A stretch of 63,530 nucleotides of DNA, the filler included, from Craspedostauros australis (taxonomy: Eukaryota): assembly GCA_030167865.1 (NCBI GenBank). It is 9 parts of 9 records of this genome, joined end to end, with 100 filler letters (N's around TTAATTAATTAA, not from the genome) between each part and the next. Parts side by side here need not be neighbours in the genome. Positions count along the whole stretch, not along the records: positions 59,422 to 63,530 come from JALAGF010003933.1; 8 more parts are not named here. One strand, given 5' to 3'. The notes under the pieces are model-generated. The model did not search any database and was not told the DNA's origin. It saw nothing but the letters and a program-made list of their open reading frames with translations. A program made the position numbers and the translations under genes. Positions 89-63,530 of this stretch are shown here, piece by piece. How positions within the stretch are numbered: position 1 is the stretch's first letter; each line of letters starts with the position of its first letter.

Positions 89-3000
89 GCTCATGCGGGA
101 TGCAAAAAGGCACGCCCACCAGCGTTGCGTCTCCGCTACAAACTGCCTCAACCCAAGTGCCAATCACGGAGCCGGATCGTTTCATGACGTCAACGACGGT
201 CCCGCTCCGTGCCAATGCACTTGCAGGGTCTCGCGACGGCGAATGGCGCCAACGGATTCATGGACAGTGTGATCTCGGTGCCAACGTTTGCGCGACTCCT
301 CATGCGCGTCTCCTCTGTGACTATGCCGCATTTACTACTCCTTCCAGCCTTGAAGCAGCGGACTCGTCTTCGCCTGCTATGGAGTGCCCGGGAGAAGGGT
401 ACATGCGGCTATCATGTGGCGACGGCGCGCATCTTTTGGTGCACACACTTCTGTGCCCACGGCTGGCTGACACGCTCGTGTCGCCGCAATCCATCATCAG
501 ACAACGTGACAACCCGTACACCAGCTTTGGCATTGAGTCCACCCAGCACAGTGCTCACATCGTCTTCAAGTCTCCGGATGACAATCTTCGAGTGCCGCTG
601 TACATTCGCAACGGTCTGTACTTCTTCGGAGGCGTTCATCCACAAGCCATGACCTTGAGACAGGCATCGCCTACACTCCTGTCGGAACTTTGGCATCTAC
701 GACTTGGACATGTGGGCATGGCGCAGCTGCAGAAGCTTTCTAAGTGCTCCACTGGTATTCCAGCGTCTGTTACTCGACACATTCACCCACTTCGACACTG
801 TGACACGTGCAGCAAGGCAGGATATCAACATGCCACACGCGGCCCCAATGACACGGCCACAGCCAACGTTGCTGGCGCTCGATTCCATGTCGACTTTGGG
901 TTCATGCGAGCCACTGACGATGCGTATGGGCAGCGCAAGAAGTCCCAAGGCGCTCAACGAGTCATCCACTCCGTCGATGGGTTTTGCGCGTACCTTCTTG
1001 TGGTCGATGCATGTACATGCTATGTATGGGTGTTTCTTACCAAGGACAAATCCCCGCCCATCATGGCTGTGCGGCAAACCCTGACTACTTTTGGGCGCCG
1101 CGAAGGCTATCGTGCGGTTCGTGTCGACTTGGGCGGTGAACTGGCCAGGTCCAGTCAGTTTGGCACCATGGTCCAGGAGTGTGGATACAACGTTGAACCT
1201 ACTGGAGCAGATTGCGCATGGATGAATGGGAAAGTGGAACGGTTGAACAAGACCTTCGGCACCATGGTGAGAGCGTTGCTTTACTCATCCGGGCTCACAC
1301 CTGACTTCTGGTCCAAAGCGTTGGCTCATGCGGTGTACCTCAAGAATCGACTTCATCATTCCACACTTGGAAGAACGCCGTATGAGGCTCAACATGGTGT
1401 CGCGCCGGACCTCAGCCATCTCCGTGTGTTTGGTGCACGCGTCACTGTGAAGAAGCCCGGCAAGGCTGCCGCGAAGCTCGACGTTCATACGTACGATGGA
1501 ATCTTCGTTGGTCACACAGCTACGACGTCCGTGCATGAGTACTACGATCTCAACACTGGAAGGTTCAAGCGGGCTGGCAACATTGTCTTTGATGAGGCGC
1601 ACTACATGTCTTCCAACCGACCTCCAGGACCAGCGTTGCTGTACAATCTGGGACTACCCACGCCTGCTGTGGAGCCAACGCCAAGCAAGGTCCTTGCTAA
1701 GCCCATGTACCCCACCATCGTCACAAGGCATGCCAAGATTCCAGCGACAGCGTGTGCAGTGCCACTTCCGTTGGGCGACATTCTCGATCATTCGCATGTT
1801 CATGCTTCTGCTGCAAGGTGCACAGAGACTGGTCAAGTCGATATCGTACATGTTGACACGACCGACGAGCTGTTTGGGTATCCATTCAGCCAGAGTGTGG
1901 ACGTGCGTGGTACGGACGGTTTCCTTGGGTTTGAGTTTCGGTATGATGAACAACGGCATCGACTTCAGCTTCAGCAGTGCAAGTCAGGTCAGCCAGCTGC
2001 GCGTATCACGCGATGGCGGTCCAGGCTGCGCAAGGCGCACCTCATTTCAATTCAAGGCCAACAGGTGCATACCGCCATGGACGCACGGCAAGCCATACAG
2101 GCCTTGCGTGAGCAGCGTGTTACCACTGCGGAGTTTGTGTTTGCATTCGATGACGTTCGCAACAACCTGTCCCAGCACGGAGTCCCGCAAATGTACTTCG
2201 ATCAGATGAAGCATGTCCGAGATATCATCGAGACGTCCACTCCCCAAGCACATGCCACCAGTGTCGCCAATGCGCCAGTCAAACTCACTCGACGAATGCT
2301 TCTACAGCAGGATGACTGGGAGCAGTGGCAGGCCGCAGAATTCAAGCAGCTGGACCAATACGATGCACAACAAATGTTTGGCGATCCTGTTCCAGCTCCC
2401 GCGGACGCTGCCATCTTCAATTGGGTCTGGGTCTATGTGGTCAAGACGCATGAGAATAATCGGAAGAAGGCGCGTGCTGTTTGCGATGGCTCTACCAGAG
2501 GAGGACATGCTCGAATATTCGGACACACCTATGCGGCTACGCCTGATTTGACGGAGTTCAGGATCCTCCTTGGCATTGCTGCAATCCAACAGCTCAAGGT
2601 GTACAGCTCGGACGTCACGAACGCTTTCGCGGAAGCCCCCGCTGGCGAACAACGATACTTCATGAAAGTGGATGAGCCGTATCAAGCGTGGTGGAAGCAG
2701 AAACATGGCACCACTATTCCTCGCGGCCACGTCATCCCGGTCAACAAGAACCTTCAAGGTCATCCTGAAGCGCCTCGCCTCTGGAGCAAGCACATCACTG
2801 GCATCCTACAACAAATCGGGTTCACTTCGACAACCCATGCTCCTTGTTTGTACACTGGGGCCATTGGTCACAACAAGATCTACGTGCTACGTCAAGTGGA
2901 TGATTTTGCAGTCGCTGCTCCATCACAGAGTGTCTTCGATACATTCTGCGACATGCTCGACAAGCGCCTCTTCCAGCCCATCACTCGACAAGGACTCATG

Positions 3001-3229: not shown

Positions 3230-3329
3230 NNNNNNNNNNNNNNNNNNNNNNNNNNNNNNNNNNNNNNNNNNNNTTAATTAATTAANNNNNNNNNNNNNNN
3301 NNNNNNNNNNNNNNNNNNNNNNNNNNNNN
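3230..3329. other. Artificial contig linker (44N-TTAATTAATTAA-44N)
   Basis: Six-frame stop spacer, identical at all gaps. Confidence 0.98.
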
Positions 3330-5550: not shown

Positions 5551-5650
5551 NNNNNNNNNNNNNNNNNNNNNNNNNNNNNNNNNNNNNNNNNNNNTTAATT
5601 AATTAANNNNNNNNNNNNNNNNNNNNNNNNNNNNNNNNNNNNNNNNNNNN
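5551..5650. other. Artificial contig linker
   Basis: 44N-TTAATTAATTAA-44N. Confidence 0.98.
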
Positions 5651-14095: not shown

Positions 14096-16105
14096 TTACG
14101 CGGAACAGGAAGAATCGCCGATGCAGCCTCCGTCAGCCACCGGATCAGCATTGGAATAGCATGCCATGGTGCCGAGGCAAGCTCCATTGCCAACATCGCC
14201 GGTGTTGGAGTAGCAAGCTTGGTACATTTTGCACGAATCCACCCCGATCTCGCCGTAGTTGAAGTCGCAAGCTTGTTGTCCTTGACATGACCCTGCACCG
14301 ACAAAACCGTAATTGTCTTCGCAAGCGCCCTCGCCAACGCAGGAACTCTCGCCGACGAAACCGTCATTGTCTTCGCAAGCGCTCTCGCCACGACAGGAGC
14401 CTAGGCCAATGTAACCACCATTCTTGTAACAAGCGCGGGTCCCGTTGCACGCGTACGATGTGACATGCCCAAAATTCTCGCCGCAGGCTCCTTCTCCAAT
14501 GCAAGAGTAGTTGCCAACGCTACCTTCGTTCTTTTCGCATGCCTTGTACAGCTGGCAGGAGCCTTCACCGATGGTTTCAACATTCTCATTGCAAGCACGG
14601 TAGCCGCTGCACGCGTATGATGCGACATTCCCAACGTTGTTGTTGCAGGCTCGCTCTCCAATGCAGGAGTACATACCAACGCTACCTTTATTCTGTTCGC
14701 ATGCCTTGTCCAGCTGGCAGGAGCCTTCACCGATGGTTTCAACATTCTCATAGCAAGCACCGTCGCCGTTGCACGCGTACGATGCGACATGCCCAGCGTT
14801 CTCGCCGCAGGCTTCTTCTCCAATGCAAGAGTAGTTGCCAACGTTACCTTCGTTCTGTTCGCATGCCTTGTCCAGCTGGCAGGAGCCTTGGCCAACGGCG
14901 CCACCATTCGAATTACAAGCGCGGGTACCGTTGCACGCGTTCGATGCGACATCCCCGGAGTTCTCGTAGCATGCGTCCTTGCCCAAGCACGATCCTTCAT
15001 CCACATTGGCTTTATTGTACGTACAGGACCTCCTGCCGATGCAGGAGCCGTCACTGACACTTCCGGAGTTGTAGACACACGCGTCCGCAATGATACATGA
15101 GCCACTACCAACGTCGCCAGCGTTAGCATAGCATGCGAAGATGCCGAGACAGGAACCGGGCTTGACTGCTCCTTCGTTGCGAGGGCACGAGTTGTCTCCG
15201 GAGCAAGAACCCTTGCCGATGGTCCCCTTGTTGGACATGCATGCACGATCACCATTGCAAGCGCCATCGGCGACAGTGCCAGAGTTCCGGAAGCAAGCAT
15301 CCTCGCCATTGCAAGCACGGGTGGGCACGGACACAGCTGTGTACTGGCAGGATCTGTCGCTGTTGCAAGAGTAGGAGGCAATCTGGATGGTCGTCGTGAT
15401 GTTGGGATTGAAGAAGCAAGCTTGCTCGCCGTTGCAGGAGTCGGGGCAGACGGTCACAGAGCTCCCACTGCTCCAAGAGCATGCGGGGGATGTGGCATTG
15501 ACCGACGCTTCGCAACAGCTGGCATTCTTGGCCACGCACTTGGCCGTGACAGCTTCGGCTGTTCCAGTGAAGCACGGCTCGAGTACCTCGGGGGGCTTGG
15601 TCGATTTGGCCGATTTCGAGGACTTGAGCTGACGACTGTTGGCGTCGTGAATCTCGTCTGTCTCCATTCCAACAGACAGAGTGCTATGCTCGTGCGATGC
15701 ATACTCATCCTCGTCATTGGCCGCATCTTGGGCTTGAAGGCGACCGAGATTGGCGTACTTGTCCTTGATGTTGGTGGAGATGGAAGGACGTGGATGGTGG
15801 GTGCTGTCTGCGACTTTGTTTGTTGTGGTCTCGACCTTTCCATCGTGAGAGTGCAGGTGAGAGCGCAAGTGAGAGTGTAGGTGAGAGTGCGATTGCGAGT
15901 ATGGCATGTTGGCATCCTTCCTCTTGTGGTTGGCTGTCAACTCCAGGAGCTTCGCCTTGGCGGCGTTGATATTGGCGTCGACATTGACGTCGATTTTGCC
16001 ATCTGCGGCTGCCTTCTTGTTGGTGTTCAGCACCGCGTCGACACCATTGGAGATGAGGCTCTGGGCCACGACGAGAGCGAGGATGTCTTTCTTGATGATT
16101 GGCAT
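14096..16105 (-). CDS. Secreted Cys-rich repeat protein with RXL + KXXK motifs (putative cell-wall/extracellular beta-solenoid)
   Basis: Signal peptide from ATG16105 (MPIIKKDILALVVAQSLISNGVDA), His-rich pro-region, RQL-KSSKSAKSTK, then ~25 C-x5-C units of ~18 aa. Confidence 0.85.
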   Translation of the reverse strand: MPIIKKDILALVVAQSLISNGVDAVLNTNKKAAADGKIDVNVDANINAAKAKLLELTANHKRKDANMPYSQSHSHLHSHLRSHLHSHDGKVETTTNKVADSTHHPRPSISTNIKDKYANLGRLQAQDAANDEDEYASHEHSTLSVGMETDEIHDANSRQLKSSKSAKSTKPPEVLEPCFTGTAEAVTAKCVAKNASCCEASVNATSPACSWSSGSSVTVCPDSCNGEQACFFNPNITTTIQIASYSCNSDRSCQYTAVSVPTRACNGEDACFRNSGTVADGACNGDRACMSNKGTIGKGSCSGDNSCPRNEGAVKPGSCLGIFACYANAGDVGSGSCIIADACVYNSGSVSDGSCIGRRSCTYNKANVDEGSCLGKDACYENSGDVASNACNGTRACNSNGGAVGQGSCQLDKACEQNEGNVGNYSCIGEEACGENAGHVASYACNGDGACYENVETIGEGSCQLDKACEQNKGSVGMYSCIGERACNNNVGNVASYACSGYRACNENVETIGEGSCQLYKACEKNEGSVGNYSCIGEGACGENFGHVTSYACNGTRACYKNGGYIGLGSCRGESACEDNDGFVGESSCVGEGACEDNYGFVGAGSCQGQQACDFNYGEIGVDSCKMYQACYSNTGDVGNGACLGTMACYSNADPVADGGCIGDSSCSA
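14420..14960 (-). repeat. 162-bp higher-order coding repeat (3 x 18 aa), ~3 copies
   Basis: GCATGCCTTGT(A/C)CAGCTGGCAGGAGCCTT recurs at 14537, 14699, 14861. Confidence 0.9.
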
Positions 16106-16555
16106 GGTTGTTGGTGGGTGTTGGTGCGAATTGGTGTGATACGAATACGTGTCTGTGTCTGTGTTGCTTTGTTGTGCCGAATTATGAGAACAGGAGCATT
16201 CAGGGGATGCAGGGTGCAAGGAAGAGATGGATCCAATTGTGGTTATCCGTGTGTATCAAAACTCGTGCATACGATTCTGCTCCACAGTGGCTGCCTCGTG
16301 TGTTTGTTGCCTTGTTTGCCTGTGTATCGGTGTGCAGAGGCATCGCCAAGTTTCTCTGTTTGTTTCTTGCTGCTCACCACAAGAGAAACGGAGGTTGGGA
16401 AGCAGTTGTCCCTGACACAAGCGCGTGCCTCTTCGACAAAATCACCGTCTTCGTCACCTCCAATTGCGGCCAGCAGGCGCCGAACAGCCAGGGTTGAGCG
16501 GCCAACGGAGAGGTTGGTGGGACTTCGCTGGTCCAACAGGAACTGAAAGTTTGGC

Positions 16556-36900: not shown

Positions 36901-37000
36901 NNNNNNNNNNNNNNNNNNNNNNNNNNNNNNNNNNNNNNNNNNNNTTAATTAATTAANNNNNNNNNNNNNNNNNNNNNNNNNNNNNNNNNNNNNNNNNNNN
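36901..37000. other. Artificial contig linker
   Basis: 44N-TTAATTAATTAA-44N. Confidence 0.98.
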
Positions 37001-41364: not shown

Positions 41365-44300
41365 GCCCATGCGGGATGCAAAAAGGCACGCCCACCAGCG
41401 TTGCATCTCCGCTGCAAACTGTCTCACCCCAAGTGCAAATCACGGGACCGGATCGTTTCATGACGTCAACGACAGTCCCGCTCTGTGCAAATGCACTTGC
41501 AGGGTCTCACAACGGCGAATGGCGCCACTGAATCCATGGTCAGTGTGATCTTGGTGCCAACGTTTGCGCGACTCCACATGCGCGTCTCCTATGTGGCTAT
41601 ACCACATTTACTACTCCTTCCAGCCTTGAAGCAGCGGACTCATCTTCGCCTGCTATGGAGTGCCCGGGAGAAGGGTACATGCGGCTATCCTGTGGCGACG
41701 GCGCGCATATTTCGGTGCACACTCTTCTGTGCCCACGACTGGCTGATACGCTTGTGTCGCCACAGTCCATCATCAGACAGCGTGACAACCCATACACCAG
41801 CTTTGGCATCGAATCCACCCAGCACAGTGCTCACATCGTCTTCAAGTCTCCGGATAACAATCTTCGAGTGCCGCTGTACATTCGCAACGGTCTGTACTTC
41901 TTTGGAGGCGTTTGTCCACAAGCCATGACCTTGAGGCAGGCCTCACCTACACTCCTGTCGGAACTTTGGCATCTACGACTTGGGCATGTGGGCATGGCAC
42001 AGCTGCAAAAGCTTTCCAAGTGCTCCACTGGTATTCCGGCGTCTGTTACAAAGCACATTCACCCACTTCGACACTGTGACACGTGCAGCAAGGCAAGATA
42101 TCAACATGCCACACGCGGCCCCAATGACACGGCCACAGCCAACGTTGCTGGCGCTAGATTCCATGTCGATTTTGGGTTCATGAGAGCCACTGACGATGCG
42201 TACGGCCAACGCAAGAAGTCCCAAGGCGCTCAACGAGTCATCCACTCCGTCGATGGATTCTGCGCATACCTTCTTGTGGTCGATGCATGTACATGCTATG
42301 TATGGGTGTTTCTTACCAAGGACAAATCACCGCCCATCATGGCTGTACGGCAAACCCTGACTACTTTTGGGCGCCGTGAAGGGTATCGTGCGGTTCGTGT
42401 CGACTTGGGCGGTGAGCTGGCCAGGTCCAGTCAGTTTGGTACCATGGTCTAGGAGTGTGGATACAACGTTGAACCTACTGGAGCAGATTGCGCATGGATG
42501 AATGGGAAAGTGGAACGGTTGAACAAGACCTTTGGCACCATGGTGAGGGCGTTACTTTACTCGTCCGGGCTCACGCCTGACTTCTGGTCCAAGGCATTGA
42601 CTCATGCGGTGTACCTCAAGAATTGACTTCATCACTCCACACTTGGACGAACGCCGTATGAGGCTCAACATGGTGTCGCACCAGACCTCAGCCACCTCCG
42701 TGTGTTTGGTGCACGAGTCACTGTGAAGAAGCCCGGCAAGGCAGCCGCAAAGCTCGACATTCATACATACGATGGCATCTTCGTTGGTCACACAGCTACG
42801 ACGTCAGTGCATGAGTACTACGATCTCAACACTGGAAGATTCAAGCGGGCTGGCAACATTGTCTTTGATGAGGCGCACTACATGTCGTCCAACCGACCTC
42901 CAGGGCCAGCGTTGCTGTACGATCTGGGACTTCCAACGCCTGCTGTGGAGCCAACGCCAAACAAGATCCTTACTAAGCCCGTGTACCCCACCATCGTCAC
43001 AAGGAATGCCAAGATTCCGGCAACAGCGTGTGCAATACCCCTTCCGTTGGGAGACATTCTCGATCATTCGCATGTCCATGCTTCTGCTGCAAGGTGCGCA
43101 GAGACTGGTCAAGTCGATATCGTGCATGTTGACATGACCGACGAGCCGTTTGGGTATCCCTTCAGCCAGAGTGTGGACGTGCGTGGTACGGACGGCTTCC
43201 TTGGGTTTGAGTTTCGGTACGATGAGCAACGGCATCGACTTCAGCTTCAGCAGTGCAAGTCAGGTCAACCAGCTGCGCGTATCACGCGATGGCGGTCCAG
43301 GCTGCGCAAGGCACACCTCATTTCAATTCAAGGCCAACAGGTGCATACAGCCATGGATGCGCGGCAGGCCATACAGACCCTGCGTGATCAGCGTGTTACC
43401 ACTGCGGAGTTTGTGTTCGCATTCAATGACGTTCGCAACAACCTGTCTCAACATGGGGTTCCGCAGATGTACTTCGATCAGATGAAGCATGTACGAGATA
43501 TCATCGACACGTCCGTTCCCAAGGCACATGCCACCAGTGTCACCAATGCACCAGTCAAGCTCACTCGGCAAATGCTTCTACAGCAAGATGACTGGGAGCA
43601 GTGGCAGGCCGCAGAATTCAAGCAGCTGGACCAATACGACGCACAACAAATGTTTGGTGATCCTGTTCCAGCTCCTGCGGATGCCGCCGTCTTCAATTGG
43701 GTATGGGTCTATGTGATCAAGGCGCATGAGAATAATCGGAAGAAGGTGCGTGCTGTTTGTGATGGCTCTACCAGGGGAGGACATGCTCGCATATTTGGAC
43801 ACACCTATGCAGCTACGCCTGATTTGACGGAGTTCAGGATTCTCCTTGGCATCGCTGCAATACAACAGCTCAAGGTGTACAGCTCGGATGTCACGAACGC
43901 TTTTGCGGAAGCCCCTGCTGGCGAACAACAGTACTTCATGAAGGTGGATGAACCGTATCAAGCATGGTGGAAGCATAAACATGGCACCACTATTCCTCGC
44001 GGCCATGTCATCCCAGTCAACAAGAACCTTCAAGGTCATCCTGAAGCGCCTCGCCTCTGGAGCAAGCACATCACTGGCATCCTCCAACAAATCGGGTTCA
44101 CTTCGACAACCCATGCTCCTTGTTTGTACACTGGGGCCATTGGCCACAACAAGATCTACGTCCTACGTCAAGTGGATGACTTTGCGGTCACTGCTCCATC
44201 ACAGAGTGTCTTCGATACATTCTGCGACATGCTCGACAAGAACCTTTTCCAGCCCGTCACTCGACAGGGGCTTATGGTGCACTACAATGGACTCGACGTT

Positions 44301-45239
44301 GATCAAGCTCGACGGTTCGTGTGCATCTATTGCACATCCTACGTGGACAAGATGCTGGAACGCAACCAGTGGCAGAACATGCGGCACACCCACAGATTGC
44401 CTATGCTATCGGACAACTCGTATGTCAAGACTTTGGACAATGCTGACGTTCCAAATGATGACAAGGAGCGAGCCGCTCTGGCCACAAAGTTCAAGTTTGG
44501 GTACCACCAAGCCATCGGAGAACTCATATGGGCTATGATATCATGCCGTCCTGACATTTCTTTTCCCGTTGTCAAACTCTCTCAATTCTCAAACAATCCA
44601 GGTGAGGCTCACTTCGAAGCTGTCAAGTTCCTCATGCGGTATGTCGCAAGCACCAGAGACTATGGCATTACATACTGGCGACAAGCATCACTCGTCGATC
44701 TTCCCGATGTGCCGGCCCCAGCCAAGCTGTCACCTCCTGGCGATTCTACGCACGACGTCGATACCACGCGCCGGCTCGAGGCTTCTACGCTGTATGGGTA
44801 CGTCGACGCCGATTGGGGTGTTGATATACGTCACCGCCGGTCCGTGTCAGGCATCGTCATGATGTTTGCAGGTGGTGCCATCGCATGGAAGACCAGGGTT
44901 CAACCCACGGTCTCCATGAGCAGCACAGAGGCGGATTTTGTTGCAGCCAGTGATGCCGGCAAGATGGCTCTTTGGCTGCGATCGATTCTCCATGAAGTTG
45001 GCGTGACGCAACCGTTCGCAACCCCCATCTTCGAGGATAATCGCGGTGCCCGGCTGATGGCCAGTGCCAGTCAGCCCACTCGGAACTCAAGACACATAGC
45101 CATCCGAGAATTCGCGGTCCTCGATTGGGTCGAGACAGACCTTGTTGCCTACCCCGAGGTCTCCTCAGAGATGAACGCATCTGATATCTGCACGAAACAG
45201 ACACCCGTGGTCCTGTTCTTTCGGCACGTTGACCTAGTT
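41301..45239 (+). pseudogene. pol: Copia pol with three in-frame stops
   Basis: TGA 41529-31, TAG 42450-52 and TGA 42624-26 where copy 1 has CGG, CAG and CGA; RT RQVDDF; RNase H YVDADW…TEA…EDN…SDICTK. Confidence 0.9.
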
Positions 45240-45339
45240 NNNNNNNNNNNNNNNNNNNNNNNNNNNNNNNNNNNNNNNNNNNNTTAATTAATTAANNNNN
45301 NNNNNNNNNNNNNNNNNNNNNNNNNNNNNNNNNNNNNNN
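45240..45339. other. Artificial contig linker
   Basis: 44N-TTAATTAATTAA-44N. Confidence 0.98.
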
Positions 45340-45397
45340 TATAAAAACGAGGACCAGCAAAACAAAACAAGTAGAAACACGTAAAGATAGTACAAAG

Positions 45398-47992
45398 ATG
45401 AACCAGAACACCGATGTGGTAGTGAAGCCTACGGGTGTCAATCGTAGAAAAGATACGATGATGACGGAGACAGCAGCGACGAAACTGAACAAGGTGATCA
45501 CAAATCAGAGGAAGACAGCCATCGGCATAGGCGGAAGCAAGGAGCATCAGGCAAGGGAGAACAAGCAGATATCGGAGAGCACCGGTGGCAAGAAACCAGG
45601 CAAGATGCCGACCCTTGTGGAAGGAGAAAACGATGAAGGAGTGTCGACAGCGCGAAAGACAACAACGAGCACGTGGAAGTCGCTACCAGGAGAGATACGC
45701 AAGGCAGCAGCCTCGTTCGCGTACGCCGAAGTCTTGGCAGAAGAAGGAAGGTCCGTACACAACCTAGTGAAAGGCATGATGTCCCTACGAACACAGTGGA
45801 CAGGCAAGGCAGCAGCACAGACCGGCAAAGTGATTCCAGTTCAAGACGTCCAAGCGTTCATCAGCATGGCGATCGACGGGCGCAAGGAGAAATTCGGGGT
45901 GGCACAGGTCCCAAAAGCAGACGAACGCAGACAGCGAATCAAGAAACTCGCAGCAGATCTGAGCATGACAGACCCCAACGTGGTGTTCAAGGACATGATG
46001 ATACCAGACTCAGGAGGGCTCCTACGCAAAACCGAAATCACCATCGCATGGCGGGCAGCAGTAAACGCACTGGGATCCAGATATCCGGACGTGGTACTGG
46101 TACCGCAAGGCGAGGATGTAGTCATGGGAGTAGCCGAAACGACGAAGGACACAGCAACAGCAGGACTAGCCAGCTCGGTTGCACAGCCTAAAGTGGTCAC
46201 AAGCAAGAAAAGACTCAAACAACGCAAAATCAAATTCTCCATCAGCAACACCGATGCACGCGAAAAAGAAGCGGCGAGGCTCGCGAAGGCGCTCCAACAC
46301 AACACGAGCAGCGAAAGCGAAGATGACGAGGACGAAGACTCCAGCGAAGAGGACGAAGCACACAGCAGCGAAGAGTCAGTGGAAGCAGACAGCGACAGTG
46401 ACACCAGTACAGTCGAGAGCACCACCACACACACAGTGAAAGAAGGCATGGTGGCCAAGAGGTTTGACTTGACCGTACCGACGAAACAAGGAAGCCACAC
46501 ATTGAAGAGATACCTGAAGGCGCTCAGGCGTTGGCTCAAGGCACTGAAGGAGCACGACAACACGATCTTCCTGATGGCCTGGATGGAAAAAGACACGAAG
46601 GAAGTCATCAGCAACGAGAAACAGTTCCCGAAGACAGAGAGAGAGCTCATGGTGTACACAAGCAGGATGAGAATGACAGCCAACGGCAGGACAGTGACCG
46701 CCCAAGTCAGAATCGCCATGACATGCGATCCGCGAGACATCGTGTCCAAAATGGGGTCGCAGATGAACTTCTACTACCAGTCGTCAGGGCAAACGCTTTA
46801 CAAGCGCCCCCTCGACGAAGCGGAGTACACCAAACAGATCGGCATGCTCACGTACACCAGCAATTTCGCCAACGCTCAAGCCATCTGTGACATCATCAAC
46901 AAAAGACTGAAGGCCGACGGAATGAAAGGGGAAGTGGGGGGAAGGATCAGAGCTGACGGACTCGTGAGTCAGGAGCGACGCGACGCGCACAAAGCAGCAG
47001 GCAAAAGTTTCAAAGTGCAGCCGTGGCAAGCCCTCAGACTAGAGGCCGACATCAGGTACCATGTACCCATCACGAAGGCACTGTGTGTGATGTTCAACGA
47101 CATGCTCAAAGTGGGACCAGGAGGACTCCGAAACAGATTCGTGCCGAACCCACTGGCAATGACGCTCGGACCAGACGGAGTGCTCGCGACAAAGAGGCTG
47201 AAAGGCAAGCACGAAGCAGTGCTGGACATGATGCAAGAAGTGAGGATCAGAGGAGTGGACGAGCTCGACGAACCGGATACAGATCATCCACGCAAGACAC
47301 TGAGGACATACCTGGCGAACCAAGTACATCCAGTGACGAAGCGGCCAGTCTTCATCCACGTGGACAAACAGGAAGTCCCATGGAACGGGGAGACAGACGT
47401 GGCGTACGCGTACGTCTTTCCGGAGCATCTTCAGCACGCAGAGGTGATCGTCAATACCCTGGCGGCAAGATGCAGGAGAGAGATTGGGCACTCCACAGCA
47501 CGGTGGTTCACACTGGCAGAGCAAGCGGAGGCCAACCAAGTGCAGTTTGACAAAGTGACTGGGAAGTACAAGGTACCCCAGGTGGAGTCCATGCTACTGG
47601 TTGCAGACGAATTCCCCAACATTGTTCTGGAAGGACTTGACGTGGTTGACGGGACGCCATACAGGCCAATTGCGCTGGACGACAAAAGTGCCTTCTCTTT
47701 CACCAATCGAACCAGCAGAAAAGGATCGGCGTTGGAACAACCAATCAAGTCAGCCATGAAGCGGCGCAAGACAGACGACGCGCAGTCGGAGGCAAGTGAG
47801 TCTGCAGGATCCGAGATGTCCGTCAACACGGGAATTTCGGAGCTGTCGGCTTTTGACAGTGTGGCAACCAACACCCTTGAGAACCAGTCGGAAGACGCTC
47901 TCGTCAAACGCATCGCGAAGATTCAGGCGGCGCTCGACAGGAAGAGAGCAAAAGAGCCAGGAGGGGACGGGGAGACCGACATGCAAGAATGA
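45398..47992 (+). CDS. LINE ORF1 protein (864 aa)
   Basis: Intact ORF upstream of the endonuclease ORF; homologous to 3330-5548; acidic Ser-rich tract. Confidence 0.8.
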   Translation: MNQNTDVVVKPTGVNRRKDTMMTETAATKLNKVITNQRKTAIGIGGSKEHQARENKQISESTGGKKPGKMPTLVEGENDEGVSTARKTTTSTWKSLPGEIRKAAASFAYAEVLAEEGRSVHNLVKGMMSLRTQWTGKAAAQTGKVIPVQDVQAFISMAIDGRKEKFGVAQVPKADERRQRIKKLAADLSMTDPNVVFKDMMIPDSGGLLRKTEITIAWRAAVNALGSRYPDVVLVPQGEDVVMGVAETTKDTATAGLASSVAQPKVVTSKKRLKQRKIKFSISNTDAREKEAARLAKALQHNTSSESEDDEDEDSSEEDEAHSSEESVEADSDSDTSTVESTTTHTVKEGMVAKRFDLTVPTKQGSHTLKRYLKALRRWLKALKEHDNTIFLMAWMEKDTKEVISNEKQFPKTERELMVYTSRMRMTANGRTVTAQVRIAMTCDPRDIVSKMGSQMNFYYQSSGQTLYKRPLDEAEYTKQIGMLTYTSNFANAQAICDIINKRLKADGMKGEVGGRIRADGLVSQERRDAHKAAGKSFKVQPWQALRLEADIRYHVPITKALCVMFNDMLKVGPGGLRNRFVPNPLAMTLGPDGVLATKRLKGKHEAVLDMMQEVRIRGVDELDEPDTDHPRKTLRTYLANQVHPVTKRPVFIHVDKQEVPWNGETDVAYAYVFPEHLQHAEVIVNTLAARCRREIGHSTARWFTLAEQAEANQVQFDKVTGKYKVPQVESMLLVADEFPNIVLEGLDVVDGTPYRPIALDDKSAFSFTNRTSRKGSALEQPIKSAMKRRKTDDAQSEASESAGSEMSVNTGISELSAFDSVATNTLENQSEDALVKRIAKIQAALDRKRAKEPGGDGETDMQE

Positions 47993-49857
47993 TAAGGGGC
48001 AAGGTAGCTCTGGGAAAGCCAAGCCCGGGGCGAACCAAGCGGCAAGGAATGAGGACGGCTGTTGGGACGGATGTGCAACGAGCAAGTCAAAGGTGGGGGG
48101 AGGATGAAAGGAGGAAAGGCGACAACACAATTCGGATAGCGACACTCAACGTCGGAAGACTTCCGAAGGATCCAACATCGCACAAACAACAGGAGCTGTG
48201 GTACTGGATCAGGCAGAACAAAATAGACGTGTGCCTACTGACGGAGGTGGGGATCAACTGGGACAAAGCTGGAACTCACGGCAGCTGGCAGGCACGAGTA
48301 CAGCACCAGTTCAGCAAGTCGAAGGAGGCACGAGCATGGAACAAGGAGGAGACGATAGGTGGGATGGTGCAATGGGGAGGAACAGCGGTGGTAGTAACAG
48401 GACACACAGCAAGCAGAGTCCTCGGGAAAGACAACGACAACCTCGGACGATGGGCGAGTATGCTCCTACAAGGAAAAGACGGCATCAAAGTGAGAATGGT
48501 GAGCGTCTACGTGCCAGTCAAAAGTAACAACGGACCCAGGTCGGTGTACATGCAGCAATTGGCAGCAACAAGCCAAGAGGGAGAGGTCGCGACCAACGAT
48601 CCAATCAAGCAACTGATAGCAGATCTTCGAACACGAATCATCGAATGGCGAGGGCGAGGAGAAGAACTCGTCGTTGGAGGGGATGTGAACATGGACGTAC
48701 AAGGATCAGAATTCGCGAGGATGATGAGAGAGGAGGAGTTAAACGAACTGGTGCTATCCAGCCAACAAGAGCAGCCAGTGGACACTCATCGGTCAGGAAA
48801 CACGGGGAGAGTCATCGACGGTCTGTGGGGTTCAGCATCGTTAGCAACAGAACGAGCAGGCATGACGGATTTCCACGAATGGGACCACAGAACCGTGTGG
48901 GCGGACGTAAGGGAGGAGAGGGTTTTTGGGAGAAAGAAACAGAGGGATGTCAAATTCACCGGGCGCCGACTGAGGCTGGGGCTGAAGCAGTCAGTGCAAA
49001 AGTACACCAACGACGTACGAAAACACATGAAGCAGCAGGGCATCCAGGAACGAGTTCAGGCACTCGAGAGGGAAGTCCACTCCAACATGAATGAAGCCCA
49101 ACGAGCAGAGCTCGAAGCCATCGACAGAGCCAGGACAGAGATCATGGCCAAGGCGGAACGCAACTGCCGAAAAGTGAGGGTGGGGAAGGTCCCGTTCAGT
49201 CCTCAAGTGGACAAGGCACGGAAGGTGAAACAGTTCTGGGACGCAGCGGCCAAACGAAGGAAGGGAAAGGTCGTGAAGTCCAGACACATGGACAGACTGA
49301 AGAAGAAGGCCAAGCTAACAATCAACACCAGATACATGACACTGAGGGACATCGAAAAGGAGAGACAGAAAGCGTGGACAAAATGGAAGCAGGTAAAAGG
49401 GGATGCAATCCGGTACCGAAGAGACTTTCTGGAGGAGGAGGTCCAACAGAAGACGGCGTCGGGGAAGACAGTGGAGAGCCAGCACAGGAAACAAGTGCTG
49501 AAGCGTGAGGAAACCAAAGAAGCGTGGAGGAAGATTCAATGGGCTACGGGGAAGTCGAAAGGAGCCGGAGTCGGCATGGTGACAGGGGAAGTAAGAGGCT
49601 CCGAGCGGAAAACGTGGACAGAGCCTGAGCAGATAGCACAATGCTTTTGCGCCGAAAACGGCAAAAAGTACCAGAAGGCTCTGGCGGCACCGGTGTTTCA
49701 ATACGGTCTACCTGAGGGTATGTGGAAAGGGCAAGGCGAGTGGCTAACTACCCTCACATCTTCAACAAGAGGTCCCGACGAGTATACCAACTGGCTACTT
49801 CAATGCCTGAGTCAGAGGCAAGGGCCAGAATGGGCGGAACAGTTGTGCAGGGTGGAG
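47989..49857 (+). CDS. LINE ORF2, apurinic-like endonuclease domain, 3' truncated
   Basis: APE motifs IATLNV, LTEVG, SVYVP, GGDVN, IDGLW, WDHR; ATG overlaps the ORF1 stop (ATGA). Confidence 0.88.
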
Positions 49858-49957
49858 NNNNNNNNNNNNNNNNNNNNNNNNNNNNNNNNNNNNNNNNNNN
49901 NTTAATTAATTAANNNNNNNNNNNNNNNNNNNNNNNNNNNNNNNNNNNNNNNNNNNN
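49858..49957. other. Artificial contig linker
   Basis: 44N-TTAATTAATTAA-44N. Confidence 0.98.
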
Positions 49958-52266: not shown

Positions 52267-52366
52267 NNNNNNNNNNNNNNNNNNNNNNNNNNNNNNNNNN
52301 NNNNNNNNNNTTAATTAATTAANNNNNNNNNNNNNNNNNNNNNNNNNNNNNNNNNNNNNNNNNNNN
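52267..52366. other. Artificial contig linker
   Basis: 44N-TTAATTAATTAA-44N. Confidence 0.98.
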
Positions 52367-55744: not shown

Positions 55745-55844
55745 NNNNNNNNNNNNNNNNNNNNNNNNNNNNNNNNNNNNNNNNNNNNTTAATTAATTAA
55801 NNNNNNNNNNNNNNNNNNNNNNNNNNNNNNNNNNNNNNNNNNNN
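55745..55844. other. Artificial contig linker
   Basis: 44N-TTAATTAATTAA-44N. Confidence 0.98.
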
Positions 55845-59321: not shown

Positions 59322-59421
59322 NNNNNNNNNNNNNNNNNNNNNNNNNNNNNNNNNNNNNNNNNNNNTTAATTAATTAANNNNNNNNNNNNNNNNNNNNNNN
59401 NNNNNNNNNNNNNNNNNNNNN
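59322..59421. other. Artificial contig linker
   Basis: 44N-TTAATTAATTAA-44N. Confidence 0.98.
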
Positions 59422-60621
59422 TGACGAGGTGCGGAAGGCGATGACGACGTCGGCTTGCCGACTGCGATCGGACTTCGTCTGCATGGCCAGGCGTAGCAGT
59501 ACTGCGCCCGTGTTTGGTGGGAGGTCGTTGTTGCTGGCGTCTCGTGGGTCGAGAATGGTGACATCCGACCACGAGATACCGAAGGTTTCCGCCGCCCGTA
59601 GCCATCCCAGCCAGCCCATGAGGTTGATGACGCCCGCCATTGCTGCTGTCCGCCGCTGTTGTGGTGTGACTGCATGTTGGTATTGGTGGAGGAAGCTTCG
59701 GTCCATGAAGTGGACGTGACGAGAGAGCAAGGCGACCGAAGGTCGTGAGTCTTCGCCGAGTCGCGTGCGCATGCCCTGTGTCAGCATCGAATACCCGAGA
59801 TGGTCCGTCGGGAGGCATGTGTCGACGGTGATGGGTCGCTGCTTGGCGTCGAGCATGGCGCGTTCGGGATGCGCGATGCACATATTCCACATGCCAAAGG
59901 CCGATGCCGCGCTGCGTAGCCCACGTACGGTGCTGAACTTGATGGCCTGGGCGTCGAGTGCGTTCTTGCAAGAGGGCGTCTGCGTGGCGTAGTGCTCCTG
60001 CACCCACATGATCGGGATCGTGTCGGAGCAGGGTGGCGATTGGATGTCGGGCGGTTGCATAGTCGGGATGCCATATTGCAGACCGAACTTGCGCAACACT
60101 TGAATCTTGCTGCTGTATGTGGTGAGTGTGCCGGCTGCCCAGTTGTGTGCCATGTCGATGATGCGCATGCGTTCTAAGCGGAGGAGGTGATAGTCGGTGG
60201 GGCTGGAGACCAGTTCCCGCTGGAGGTGCACTTGGACCGTGCATGCCTCACAGACAAAGAGACCCAGTATGCTGAGGTTGGGTGGCAGCACCAGGCCTTT
60301 ATGATTGCGGAGGCGCGTGCGGAAGGGAGGTCCGACTCGACAGCACAGCTTGTGGTATCGGGTGTGACATGGCTGGTAGGAGATACCGCCGTGAGTGAAC
60401 CCAATGTCGGCGAAGTGACACTGGTGTGCGGCGGTGCGCCGATTGATACTCCTAGCACAACCCGTGCAAACGCTCGGCGATCCGTTGGTGATGCCGCCGA
60501 TTCCGGGAGCGGGGAGCAAAGTCCAATCTGGGCGGCGTGAGGGAACGAGTGTGTGGAGAGACACGGAGGAGGAGGTTAGGAATGTTGAGAGGAGAAGAAG
60601 AGGAGAGAGACAGGTCGTCAT
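59422..60621 (-). CDS. Tyrosine recombinase with N-terminal Cys/His finger; 3' truncated
   Basis: WAAGTLTTY core-binding start, catalytic WLRAAE and TKSDR motifs; true start uncertain. Confidence 0.8.
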
Positions 60622-63382
60622 TGGTGAACACTCCGACCCGGATGAGATGACGTGAGAGTCGGACGAAAGTGCGTTGGAGCACTCTGGGGACGAGGATGAC
60701 GAATCCAGTATCCGATGGCTGCTCCGCCCAGCATCCCAGCAGGAAGTAGATCAGCTGATAGGCCAGTTCTGGCGGCGGCGCCCACAGGGTGATGCAGTTC
60801 ATGCAGCTCTCTGGGTTCCATGGGCGGTCCCATCGACGTAGTAGTACAGTCGTGGGAGTGTCAGGGAAGGCGAGGGACGCGATCCGGGAGACATGCCGTT
60901 GTTGGAGTGGTGCCGGGGCCAGACATGCGGATAAGATCCGCGATGACGTCGGTCTCTGATGGGCCGCATTGATCCAGATCCCACGGCTGAGTCCGTCAGT
61001 CCCTTCGGTGATGATGGCGGTGCCAGGGATGTGGATGACTTGGAGGTGGCACGACAGGCGAAGCTCGAGCTGCTTGATCTTTCGAACCATCTTGTGCAGT
61101 TCCGGTGATGTGGAAGTGCCTCCATCGACAACACAGTAGGTGCACATGTTGTTGGTGAAGTAGAAGAAGGTGGCGCCGAAGACGTCAGTGGCGGATGCCG
61201 GGTTGTTGGCGACCTGCTGCAGAGTGCTGAGTAGGGTGCGCAGCTCCTTCCAGTTGGATGAGTGGCGTGTGGCCACAAGGGAGGACCATGTGCCCATCCA
61301 CATGCATGAGGGTTGACTGGGGAAGAGGATGGTGCCACCGGTGCCTGTGCCACTGCCGTCTCCAAAGCTGCTGACGAGAATGCCGGTGCGGGTCGCGCGA
61401 CCGCTTCGTGCGGTATCGTTGGTGAGCGCTGATCGCCACCATTGGAGGTCTTGTGTGACTGCGAGGGTGATGGCTGTGTAGCTGAAGTATGGTAAATCAG
61501 GTTGGTCCCATTCGCTGGGATGGATGAGTGCGTAGAGATCCCGCAGGTAGTTGCGACCGAGGTACGATGGTGTGGCCTCGGCTACGCTCTCCAACATGCC
61601 CGCCAGAACCGCGAGGGCGAGTCGGGAGACTCTTGTGGGTGTGGCTTCGATGTAGTCCAACACCGCGATGATCTTGTCCCGTTTCAGCGGAGGGATGCGT
61701 AGGCGTGGTGTGCTCGTGGTGTCAAAAATCAGTCCAGTGTACTTGACGACCTGGCTGGGTGGCGTGAGCTTGCCAGGGTGACAGAGTAGGCCACAGTCCA
61801 CCGACAGGTCGAGGAAGGCCGACAATGCCGCTGCGGTCTTGTGGCGTGTGGGTCCATGGATGATGAAGTCATCACAGTGGGCCCACACGAGAGCGGCGGG
61901 CAATCCGTCGGATCCGACGGCCACAAGTCCCTGTCCTCTGGTATGGTCATAGTCCAGGCCTTGGTCGAATGCGGTCCACCACATATTAGAGCGTTGAGTG
62001 CCTTGGTATATCGGAGAATGCTCGCGTAGTCGTCGGAGGAAAGCGGTTCCTAGTCTGCATGCGATAGCCGGTGATTGGCTGGATCCCATTGGCAGCCCAG
62101 CATACTGGTACATTTCTCCCGAAATCGGATGTTGGATGCCAAGAAATCGCCTTTCGTCAGGACGCGTTCGAAATTGGTAAAAATACTTCGAAGCATCCAC
62201 CACCGCCGACCATCCACCGTGATACATTTGTTTCAAAATGTCGCGGCTTTTTGGAAAAATGGTCGGATCGGCCCCAATGAACTCGTTGGTGCGGTTTTCC
62301 CGCATGTTGGCGATGATGCGCCATTGATCGGGCTGCATGGGTTTCGGTAGAGCAAAGAGTGGAGCATTGACAACCACTGGATGAAGTGGGTCTTGCGGCT
62401 CGACGACGCCGAGGCTGAGTAGCTCGTCGACGAAGTCTGCTGCCACCTGTTGTTGTTCAGCGGTCATGTCGGTGTTATCATGGTGTCCTGATTCCGGAGT
62501 GCCTAGAAAATTCATCGGGCTCCCTTCTCGCAGATGGCCCCAGTGCTGTTGAGGGAATTCCCACCAGAGTACTCGTAGCTGTTTGGGGTCGGGGTGTGTG
62601 TCCGTGTAGTTGGTGCGGTGAACGCGTAGGTCGTCGAGTCCGTCCTCGAGTAGCGAAGCGGATCGTTCTCCGTAACGCCCACAAGCCTGCCGCAGGTTGC
62701 CCACACGGCGCCGATGCCAATCGCTGCCAGGAGAGAGGTCGGGTGGGGACCATTGATATCGGGAGTCGCCGTTGTTGTCCTCGGTGATGGTTGGCTGGGT
62801 CTGTCTTCGTCGTCTTCGTCGTCGTCGTCGTTCTGTCGTTGGTGTCGTAGGTTGGGAGGGTTCGGAGTGCTGATGTACTTGGCGGGCCAAGTCCATCAAC
62901 GGTGTGGAGAGGTACTCCAGCAGATGTTGTGACGGAGTGTGGAAAAGCACTCGCCACTTCGCCTGCTTCAGCACCTCTCCAGGGAGCGAGCTGCCCAGGG
63001 CTTTCCCTAACTCGTCTGGAAAGAGGCGTCTGACGCCTCTATCCGTCTGAATGAGGGCAAGCCGGTCCATTGGCATCGCAGATGTTGCGCTGTCGACGAC
63101 CGACTGGGCGTTACTCTTCGTTATGTAGCATCTTCGCGGAACTCCGCAGTGACGAAGACAGTTCGCCATGCTTCGTTCAGATGCGGGTTGGAGGTCTGGC
63201 CAGTCGATGCCAGATGCCGTCCACGTTGTTGCCGCCCTCACCACCACCGTATAAATCACCGATACCGCTCCACCCATTCGTTGGTTGGGGAGGGCCTTGA
63301 TCTGTGTTCCGTAACCGAGGTCCGTCCAGAGCTTGCACTCCCGTTTGGAGGCCGCATGTTGTATCCACCCCAGGTGGGGTCC
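60452..63382 (-). CDS. DIRS-type polyprotein: C5-MTase-like segment, RT, RNase H, N6-MTase-like tail
   Basis: RT: WRIIANMR, VVDASKYFYQF, LPMGSSQSP, HCDD (61868-79); RNase H: GDGSGTG, SNWKEL, TNN, DGLSRG; frame open upstream of ATG63277 to a TGA at 63395-97. Confidence 0.88.
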   Translation of the reverse strand, partial: GPHLGWIQHAASKRECKLWTDLGYGTQIKALPNQRMGGAVSVIYTVVVRAATTWTASGIDWPDLQPASERSMANCLRHCGVPRRCYITKSNAQSVVDSATSAMPMDRLALIQTDRGVRRLFPDELGKALGSSLPGEVLKQAKWRVLFHTPSQHLLEYLSTPLMDLARQVHQHSEPSQPTTPTTERRRRRRRRRQTQPTITEDNNGDSRYQWSPPDLSPGSDWHRRRVGNLRQACGRYGERSASLLEDGLDDLRVHRTNYTDTHPDPKQLRVLWWEFPQQHWGHLREGSPMNFLGTPESGHHDNTDMTAEQQQVAADFVDELLSLGVVEPQDPLHPVVVNAPLFALPKPMQPDQWRIIANMRENRTNEFIGADPTIFPKSRDILKQMYHGGWSAVVDASKYFYQFRTRPDERRFLGIQHPISGEMYQYAGLPMGSSQSPAIACRLGTAFLRRLREHSPIYQGTQRSNMWWTAFDQGLDYDHTRGQGLVAVGSDGLPAALVWAHCDDFIIHGPTRHKTAAALSAFLDLSVDCGLLCHPGKLTPPSQVVKYTGLIFDTTSTPRLRIPPLKRDKIIAVLDYIEATPTRVSRLALAVLAGMLESVAEATPSYLGRNYLRDLYALIHPSEWDQPDLPYFSYTAITLAVTQDLQWWRSALTNDTARSGRATRTGILVSSFGDGSGTGTGGTILFPSQPSCMWMGTWSSLVATRHSSNWKELRTLLSTLQQVANNPASATDVFGATFFYFTNNMCTYCVVDGGTSTSPELHKMVRKIKQLELRLSCHLQVIHIPGTAIITEGTDGLSRGIWINAAHQRPTSSRILSACLAPAPLQQRHVSRIASLAFPDTPTTVLLRRWDRPWNPESCMNCITLWAPPPELAYQLIYFLLGCWAEQPSDTGFVILVPRVLQRTFVRLSRHLIRVGVFTNDDLSLSSSSPLNIPNLLLRVSPHTRSLTPPRLDFAPRSRNRRHHQRIAERLHGLC

Positions 63383-63530
63383 TGTCCTATTAGCTCAAAC
63401 TAGTATTCCTATTAGTCGTGTTAAGATTTAGTCGAGTTAATCAAATGACCAACTGCTCAGAGTTTGAGCGGGATTGAAGCGTGACTCGATGTCGGTGGGA
63501 TGGGGTCCCACCCTCGAATCGTGCTCTACT

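Follow-up and report, generated by a model that had tools for sequence, protein, structure and literature searches.

A conserved domain with the predicted fold of a cytosine methyltransferase, most likely no longer catalytic, at the N terminus of a DIRS-like retrotransposon Pol in Craspedostauros australis

Introduction

A retrotransposon locus of Craspedostauros australis raises the question as to whether a segment fused upstream of a reverse transcriptase (RT) is a C5-cytosine methyltransferase and, if so, whether it could still act as one. The locus lies at the end of a 63,530-nucleotide stretch of DNA from assembly GCA_030167865.1, and this whole stretch, as analyzed here, is referred to as the window. 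It is made up of nine contigs, with eight N44-TTAATTAATTAA-N44 linkers between them (at 3230-3329, 5551-5650, 36901-37000, 45240-45339, 49858-49957, 52267-52366, 55745-55844 and 59322-59421), and neighbors across a linker are therefore not physically linked. An initial annotation, prepared from the sequence alone, had placed a C5-cytosine-methyltransferase-like segment at 62890-63382, upstream of the RT of a DIRS-like element, had noted that its QxRxR and GN motifs are not intact, and had suggested that the element might use it for marking or binding its own DNA.

We find that the segment is more than a chance resemblance, and that it is the C-terminal part of a domain for which structure prediction indicates the two-lobed fold of the C5-methyltransferases. 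The domain is most likely a pseudo-enzyme that has ceased to methylate cytosine, and we regard it as probable that it is a conserved pseudo-methyltransferase-fold domain, N-terminal in a DIRS-like Pol, that most likely serves as a nucleic-acid-binding module.

Results

A methyltransferase-like segment in an open Pol frame

The contig bearing the Pol gene spans from position 59422 to the window end; both ends of the element are absent from it, and the window contains a single copy of the element. The minus strand has an open frame of 980 codons, 63394 to 60455, that runs into the RT, and the minus-strand translation of 63529 to 60452 contains the peptide strings quoted in the initial annotation exactly as they were given, in a single frame continuous with the RT. 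The part of this frame that has homologs extends from ~63367 to 62888, close to the span originally proposed; it begins with the last two strands of the large domain and closes with the final helix. The first ATG of the Pol frame, at 63277, falls in the middle of the domain. The frame and the recognizable parts of the domain are as follows, with the basis for each in parentheses.

60452..63394, minus strand: entire open frame of Pol, 980 codons and the stop (open reading frame [ORF] translation)
62888..63367, minus strand: C-terminal ~60% of the predicted C5-cytosine-methyltransferase-fold domain, residues 10-169 of the open frame (phmmer relatives, AF2 model, Foldseek)
63236..63319, minus strand: motif VII-VIII equivalent, LGY ... 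GG ... R (HMMER family profile against M.HhaI 106-165; column table)
63053..63235, minus strand: small-domain (target-recognition-domain-like) part, with the blocks W.WP, R.M.N.L...G and ..MP (alignment columns)
62993..63052, minus strand: motif IX equivalent, I.T..G.RRL..DE....LG (profile 223-265 aligned to M.HhaI 271-315)
62888..62938, minus strand: final helix at the motif X position, without GN (helix 156-176 in the AF2 model)

The domain is conserved among diverged relatives and lies N-terminal to the RT

An exhaustive phmmer search of 1.84 billion cluster representatives, with residues 1-180 of the frame as query, recovered 82 representatives at E<=1e-3 and seven at E<=1e-10 (best, 5.7e-16), covering the query from about residue 10 to residue 168. 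A word-index homolog search with the same 180 residues found no match among proteins of 539-1715 residues. Ten of the 82 relatives carry an RVT_1 match (E<=0.01), and the domain is N-terminal to RVT_1 in all 10; most of the others, in which RVT_1 is not found, are short gene calls from short contigs. A related-locus search with a 12-row alignment yielded two further loci (L001 and L002). The metagenome locus L001 encodes ORF1 followed by a Pol that starts ~55 residues ahead of the domain and continues through the linker into the RT, and the window and L001 Pol proteins are collinear (BLASTP). The placement upstream of the RT that was originally described is thus a property of the relatives as well as of the window copy. 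We also observed that L001 ORF1 (336-2564, plus strand; 743 residues) contains an RNase H1 N-terminal hybrid-binding domain (Cauli_VI, E 1e-10, above the cut-off), which is unusual with a gag-like ORF.

In a family alignment of 52 rows (A1), into which the window copy was placed with MAFFT, the window copy retains 17 of the 18 columns that are conserved in at least 90% of rows, with P118 counted among them by virtue of a gapped placement. These highly conserved columns include scaffold positions in motifs VI-VIII (P118, Y150, G163 and G164), positions in the small lobe (W186, M199, N201, L203, G207, M230 and P231) and positions in motif IX (I238, G243, E251 and G257). The most conserved blocks of the family sit in the small-domain part, where M199, N201, L203, G207, M230 and P231 are all retained in the window copy. 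The window copy also carries the motif IX pattern R.L..RE...G.P, retaining R122, L124, E128 and G134 (open-frame numbering). Family positions P136, Q168 and R170 are substituted, with V46 in the Q168 column and Y48 in the R170 column; at these two columns, 34 of the 52 rows have Q and 29 have R, respectively.

Structure prediction indicates a two-lobed C5-methyltransferase fold

The AF2 model of a full-length relative, P0057, built from the 52 aligned rows of A1, has a pLDDT of 89.9 and a pTM of 0.88. In a Foldseek search of PDB, its top match is M.HhaI (E 2.4e-12, TMq 0.71), followed by Dnmt2, Shigella Dcm, M.HaeIII, M.MpeI, DNMT3A/B, MET1, DNMT5 and DNMT1, with 168 matches at E<=1e-3; DNMT3-type chains match less closely (E about 4e-7, TMq 0.56) than do the bacterial-type enzymes and Dnmt2. 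Aligned to M.HhaI with VIA-align, P0057 has a Z score of 23.4 and a root-mean-square deviation of 2.7 Å over 266 of 295 residues, covering HhaI 2-324 and hence both lobes, and all 50 VIA rows listed are C5-methyltransferases. Sequence identity between P0057 and the bacterial enzymes is only 10-15%. Searching with ESM features of P0057 gave 29 of 30 matches in the PF00145 set (top score, 0.92).

The window's own 180 residues, modeled with 72 aligned rows, give a pLDDT of 89.5, and the best Foldseek match is M.MpeI (E 1.8e-5, TMq 0.63); there are 22 matches at E<=1e-3, and the matches listed are exclusively C5-methyltransferases. We consider the structural comparisons decisive: as modeled, the domain is a two-lobed C5-methyltransferase fold comprising a Rossmann-type catalytic lobe and a small recognition lobe. 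The profile or structural similarity to these enzymes on which the initial annotation had staked its proposal is therefore present in both the window copy and its full-length relative.

Agreement in motif order is also seen at the sequence level. When the A1 profile was compared with PDB sequences, all 11 matches at E<=10 are M.HhaI variants, with the motifs in the right order, and each match is in two collinear parts, in which profile 88-147 pairs with HhaI 106-165 and profile 223-265 pairs with HhaI 271-315, corresponding to motifs VI-VIII and IX-X.

The catalytic and cofactor motifs are degenerate

Canonical C5-methyltransferases have FxGxG(G) as the S-adenosylmethionine (SAM)-binding loop of motif I, the Pro-Cys nucleophile of motif IV, ENV with the catalytic Glu in motif VI, QxRxR in motif VIII, R.L..RE...G.P in motif IX and GN in motif X. 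The regions of motifs I, IV and VI are outside the open frame of the window, and counts for these three motifs are from the relatives only. The motif IV PC is found in none of the 42 relatives that show the preceding beta-4 block, and no column of the loop following beta-4 has more than two Cys residues in 45 rows. FxGxGG is found in none of the 82 relatives, with a shorter [FY]G[TS]...G.[ED] block at its position in 19 of them, and the motif X GN[AS]V is likewise absent from all 82; in its place, the window copy and the family have a T-T/P-S ... E helix. In motif VIII, the window copy lacks an intact QxRxR, as the initial annotation had noted, and has residues of the type V..V..Y at these positions. 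That annotation had also named FxGxG, PC and ENV as the motifs to look for in uninterrupted copies; in the relatives, equivalents of motifs I, IV and VI are present only in degenerate form, without the catalytic Cys or the Gly-rich SAM loop.

As judged from these alignments, the motif IV Pro-Cys, the motif I Gly-rich loop and the motif X Gly-Asn have been lost. Because the nucleophile and cofactor motifs are missing, methylation of cytosine has most likely been given up, leaving a pseudo-enzyme.

The remainder of Pol and the downstream ORF resemble a DIRS-like element

The other parts of the element within the contig are as follows.

62264..62887, minus strand: linker from the domain to the RT, an Arg run followed by conserved pre-RT blocks common to relatives (BLASTP, collinear with L001 ORF2, 48% identity over 610 residues)
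61727..62263, minus strand: RT core (Pfam RVT_1, residues 378-556, E 7.6e-6, 26.2 bits, under the 29.6 cut-off)
59422..60621, minus strand: overlapping downstream ORF, recombinase-like, ended by the contig end (N-linker 59322-59421) before the catalytic part (ESM-atlas leads)

RVT_1, which scores 35-38 bits in the relatives, is the only relevant Pfam match at E<=1 in the 980-residue Pol. Pfam gave no match to rve or to a protease in this protein; a Pol with RT and RNase H, but with neither DDE integrase nor protease, is characteristic of DIRS-like elements. The C terminus of Pol after the RNase H region (60455-61300, minus strand) has no Pfam match at E<=0.1 and no PDB sequence match. Pfam and PDB sequence searches gave no support to the Dam-like and PHD-like modules that the initial annotation had also attributed to the element. 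The linker includes a run of eight Arg codons (62795-62840, minus strand) ahead of the conserved pre-RT blocks, and this run is absent in L001.

The downstream ORF has no Pfam match at E<=1 and no PDB sequence match. As a putative tyrosine recombinase, it has weak ESM-atlas leads (0.84-0.86) to clusters of NDC10_II, DUF3435, DUF3504, Phage_int_SAM and Phage_integrase, which are recombinase-related families. This ORF opens with a Cys/His-rich stretch, the PHD-like module of the initial annotation.

The 5' side of the window copy

Three stops interrupt the reading frame immediately upstream of the open frame, at 63439-63437, 63430-63428 and 63397-63395, all within 66 nt, and the homology begins within a few codons of the last of these. 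Two features are present here.

63387..63449, minus strand: 63-nt AT-rich stretch (GC 0.32) with a GT start and an AG end and with all three stops inside, a possible short intron or an insertion/breakpoint
63450..63529, minus strand: 27 open codons in the same frame at the window edge, with a weak likeness to the family 'IESW' block and unfit spacing

Taking out the 63-nt stretch preserves the frame and raises the family-profile score from 169.6 to 176.2 bits; the profile contains the window's own row, and only the difference between the two scores is meaningful. L001 and L002 are uninterrupted at this position. A tblastn comparison of the 27 upstream codons with the relatives gave no significant high-scoring segment pair. 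We also considered the stop-bearing stretch as decayed coding sequence, since one tblastn alignment places 'ILV' opposite the beta-5 strand of the family; this is less likely, as the stretch is AT-rich with GT..AG ends. Damage to the 5' side of this copy seems to us close to an even prospect; that the 63-nt stretch is an intron, with the remainder of the domain beyond the window end, is a realistic but smaller one, and what is left falls to neither.

A possible, if doubtful, reading of these features is that the domain is functional in the family and that the window copy is a 5'-damaged relic, a truncated segment without a proper start. The three stops directly upstream of the homology, a first ATG inside the domain, the lack of a significant match for the 27 upstream codons and the uninterrupted state of L001 and L002 are all consistent with this, as are the substitutions of P136, Q168 and R170. 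However, the 980 downstream codons are open, 17 of the 18 near-invariant columns are retained, and the 63-nt stretch, being GT-AG-bounded, AT-rich and frame-preserving, resembles an intron more than decay.

Other features of the window

Other contigs of the window include further mobile-element sequences. Copia-type pieces (gag_pre-integrs, SH3_retrovirus and RVT_2) are present at 41532-45239 on the plus strand, and a LINE-like (long interspersed nuclear element) ORF with an Exo_endo_phos endonuclease domain is at 47881-49857, also on the plus strand; the ORF ahead of the latter (45341-47989) has no Pfam match and lies in a region with strong AT and GC skew. A 719-residue ORF (14099-16255, minus strand) contains five stretches matching DUF7640 (E 5.3e-67). 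An intron-free ORF for an amine (polyamine) oxidase is found on another contig (11041-12924, minus strand), and its four best named relatives, 40-44% identical, come from the diatom genera Seminavis, Thalassiosira and Nitzschia. This fits the diatom host of the initial annotation, although the contigs of the window are only joined in a chain.

Discussion

Taken as a whole, the element would have a Pol organized, as in full-length relatives, in the order methyltransferase-like domain, linker, RT and RNase H, with a gag-like ORF upstream of Pol and a recombinase-like ORF downstream. Retention of the domain across 82 lineages that are >50% diverged, together with the well-conserved recognition lobe, suggests that it binds something. 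Our first guess as to the ligand would be the element's own nucleic acid (cDNA or DNA), with a host methyltransferase second; nucleic acid is preferred because the best-conserved residues are in the part that recognizes DNA in real enzymes, plus the scaffold motifs that hold the lobes together. As to the initial proposal that the element marks or binds its own DNA, marking by methylation would be unlikely with motifs so degenerate, and binding is probably the better half of it.

Several observations weigh against this interpretation. First, methyltransferase homology is marginal at the sequence level. PF00145 has no match in the window at E<=1 (Pfam), and it is found in only one of the 82 relatives, at 17.3 bits and thus below the 22-bit Pfam gathering cut-off; the best E value among the matches of the A1 profile to PDB sequences is 0.12; and an hhalign comparison of A1 with 13 close Dcm orthologs, a set of low diversity (at least 74% identity), is not significant (probability 0.69, E 0.082), yet is collinear from motif VI to motif IX. 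Second, the loss of activity is read from the motifs alone, and a conserved Glu still occupies the place of motif VI. The family has E.W there, 43 of 48 rows having the E and 45 of 48 the W; the register of this Glu varies with method, HMMER placing it one position off the HhaI Glu and hhalign placing it on the Dcm Glu with a gap. Third, the case for the fold is based on predicted, not solved, structures. Finally, no open frame of the window covers the upstream half of the domain in this copy, and the intron that could account for this gains only 6.6 bits in the family-profile comparison.

An improbable alternative, suggested by analogy, is that the dead fold would act through protein contacts in the manner of the DNMT3-like partners, docking on a host methyltransferase to recruit or block it. 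DNMT3L and DNMT3B3 are catalytically inactive DNMT-fold regulators of active enzymes, and complexes containing them are among the structural matches (e.g., 6pa7 and 6kdt). However, DNMT3-type chains match less well than bacterial-type enzymes and Dnmt2, and the most conserved residues belong to the lobe through which real enzymes contact DNA. DNMT3L and DNMT3B3 likewise keep a methyltransferase fold without catalytic competence, but they act as regulators in the host, have a DNMT3-type fold and lack a large recognition lobe, whereas the present domain is transposon-borne and has a conserved small lobe.

It is very improbable that the domain is a still-active, highly divergent cytosine methyltransferase acting on the cDNA or RNA of the element, as has been proposed for SymbioDIRS-Dnmt3. 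The predicted fold is complete in both lobes, the Glu at the motif VI place is conserved, and there are conserved Arg residues in motifs VIII and IX. There is also a precedent: according to de Mendoza et al. (2018; PMC5890265), the DIRS-like SymbioDIRS-Dnmt3 of Symbiodinium combines a catalytically intact Dnmt3 domain and the RT in one Pol ORF and has a separate recombinase ORF, and its Dnmt3 domains are Pfam-detectable and reported to be capable of de novo methylation at CG. Against this, the nucleophile loop of the present family has no conserved Cys (PC in 0/42, and at most two Cys per column in 45 rows), the Gly-rich SAM loop and GN are each missing from all 82 relatives, and the domain is not recognized by Pfam. 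SymbioDIRS-Dnmt3 and the present element share a C5-methyltransferase-fold domain and an RT in a DIRS-like Pol; unlike it, the present domain is invisible to Pfam and is without PC, FxGxG and GN, it is closer by structure match to bacterial-type enzymes and Dnmt2 than to DNMT3, and the element is in a diatom-type assembly.

There is a negligible likelihood that this is an unrelated, lineage-specific N-terminal domain in which the likeness is motif pareidolia: single-sequence searches with the first 200 residues find nothing relevant in Pfam (only REV at E 0.16) or among PDB sequences (only a coronavirus nsp9 chain at E 0.11) and the Dcm comparison is not significant, but VIA-align gives Z 23.4 over 266 of 295 residues spanning both lobes, all VIA and Foldseek rows listed are C5-methyltransferases, and 11 of 11 profile matches in PDB are M.HhaI with the correct motif order.

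The interpretation that we prefer, a noncatalytic domain of methyltransferase fold that probably binds nucleic acid, can be compared with other systems. M.HhaI, M.MpeI and Dcm share this two-lobed fold along almost the whole chain, with motifs VI-VIII and IX-X in the same order; unlike them, the present domain is without the catalytic Cys, the SAM loop and GN, and is fused to a retrotransposon Pol. A DNA-methyltransferase-derived module in a retrotransposon Pol is also a feature of the Dam-like adenine methyltransferase domain of DIRS elements and of EpiLTRs, where, according to a preprint (bioRxiv 10.64898/2026.05.21.726589), the module follows RNase H and its catalytic pocket is reported to be preserved; it differs from the present domain in having an unrelated fold and another position in Pol. 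Within the main texts covered, full-text literature searches brought up no methyltransferase-like domain described for DIRS elements of diatoms. The present family would be a further version of the known DNMT-bearing retrotransposons.

We propose tentatively, as an unlikely extension of the preferred interpretation, that a captured cytosine methyltransferase has been made into a dead, conserved module in diatom-type DIRS-like retrotransposons, where it would grip DNA at its old target site and could guide or protect new cDNA or act as a decoy shielding the copy from host methylation-based silencing. If true, it would be a transposon counter-defense built from the fold of the host's own silencing enzyme.

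The discovery of retrotransposons with working cytosine methyltransferases is recent and has been much discussed, and this family would show the next step, in which the fold is retained in at least 82 diverged lineages after its chemistry has been lost and would therefore have a noncatalytic job in retrotransposition or in the evasion of silencing. Standard domain scans miss such modules, so that their number may be underestimated when transposons are surveyed for 'epigenetic' domains.

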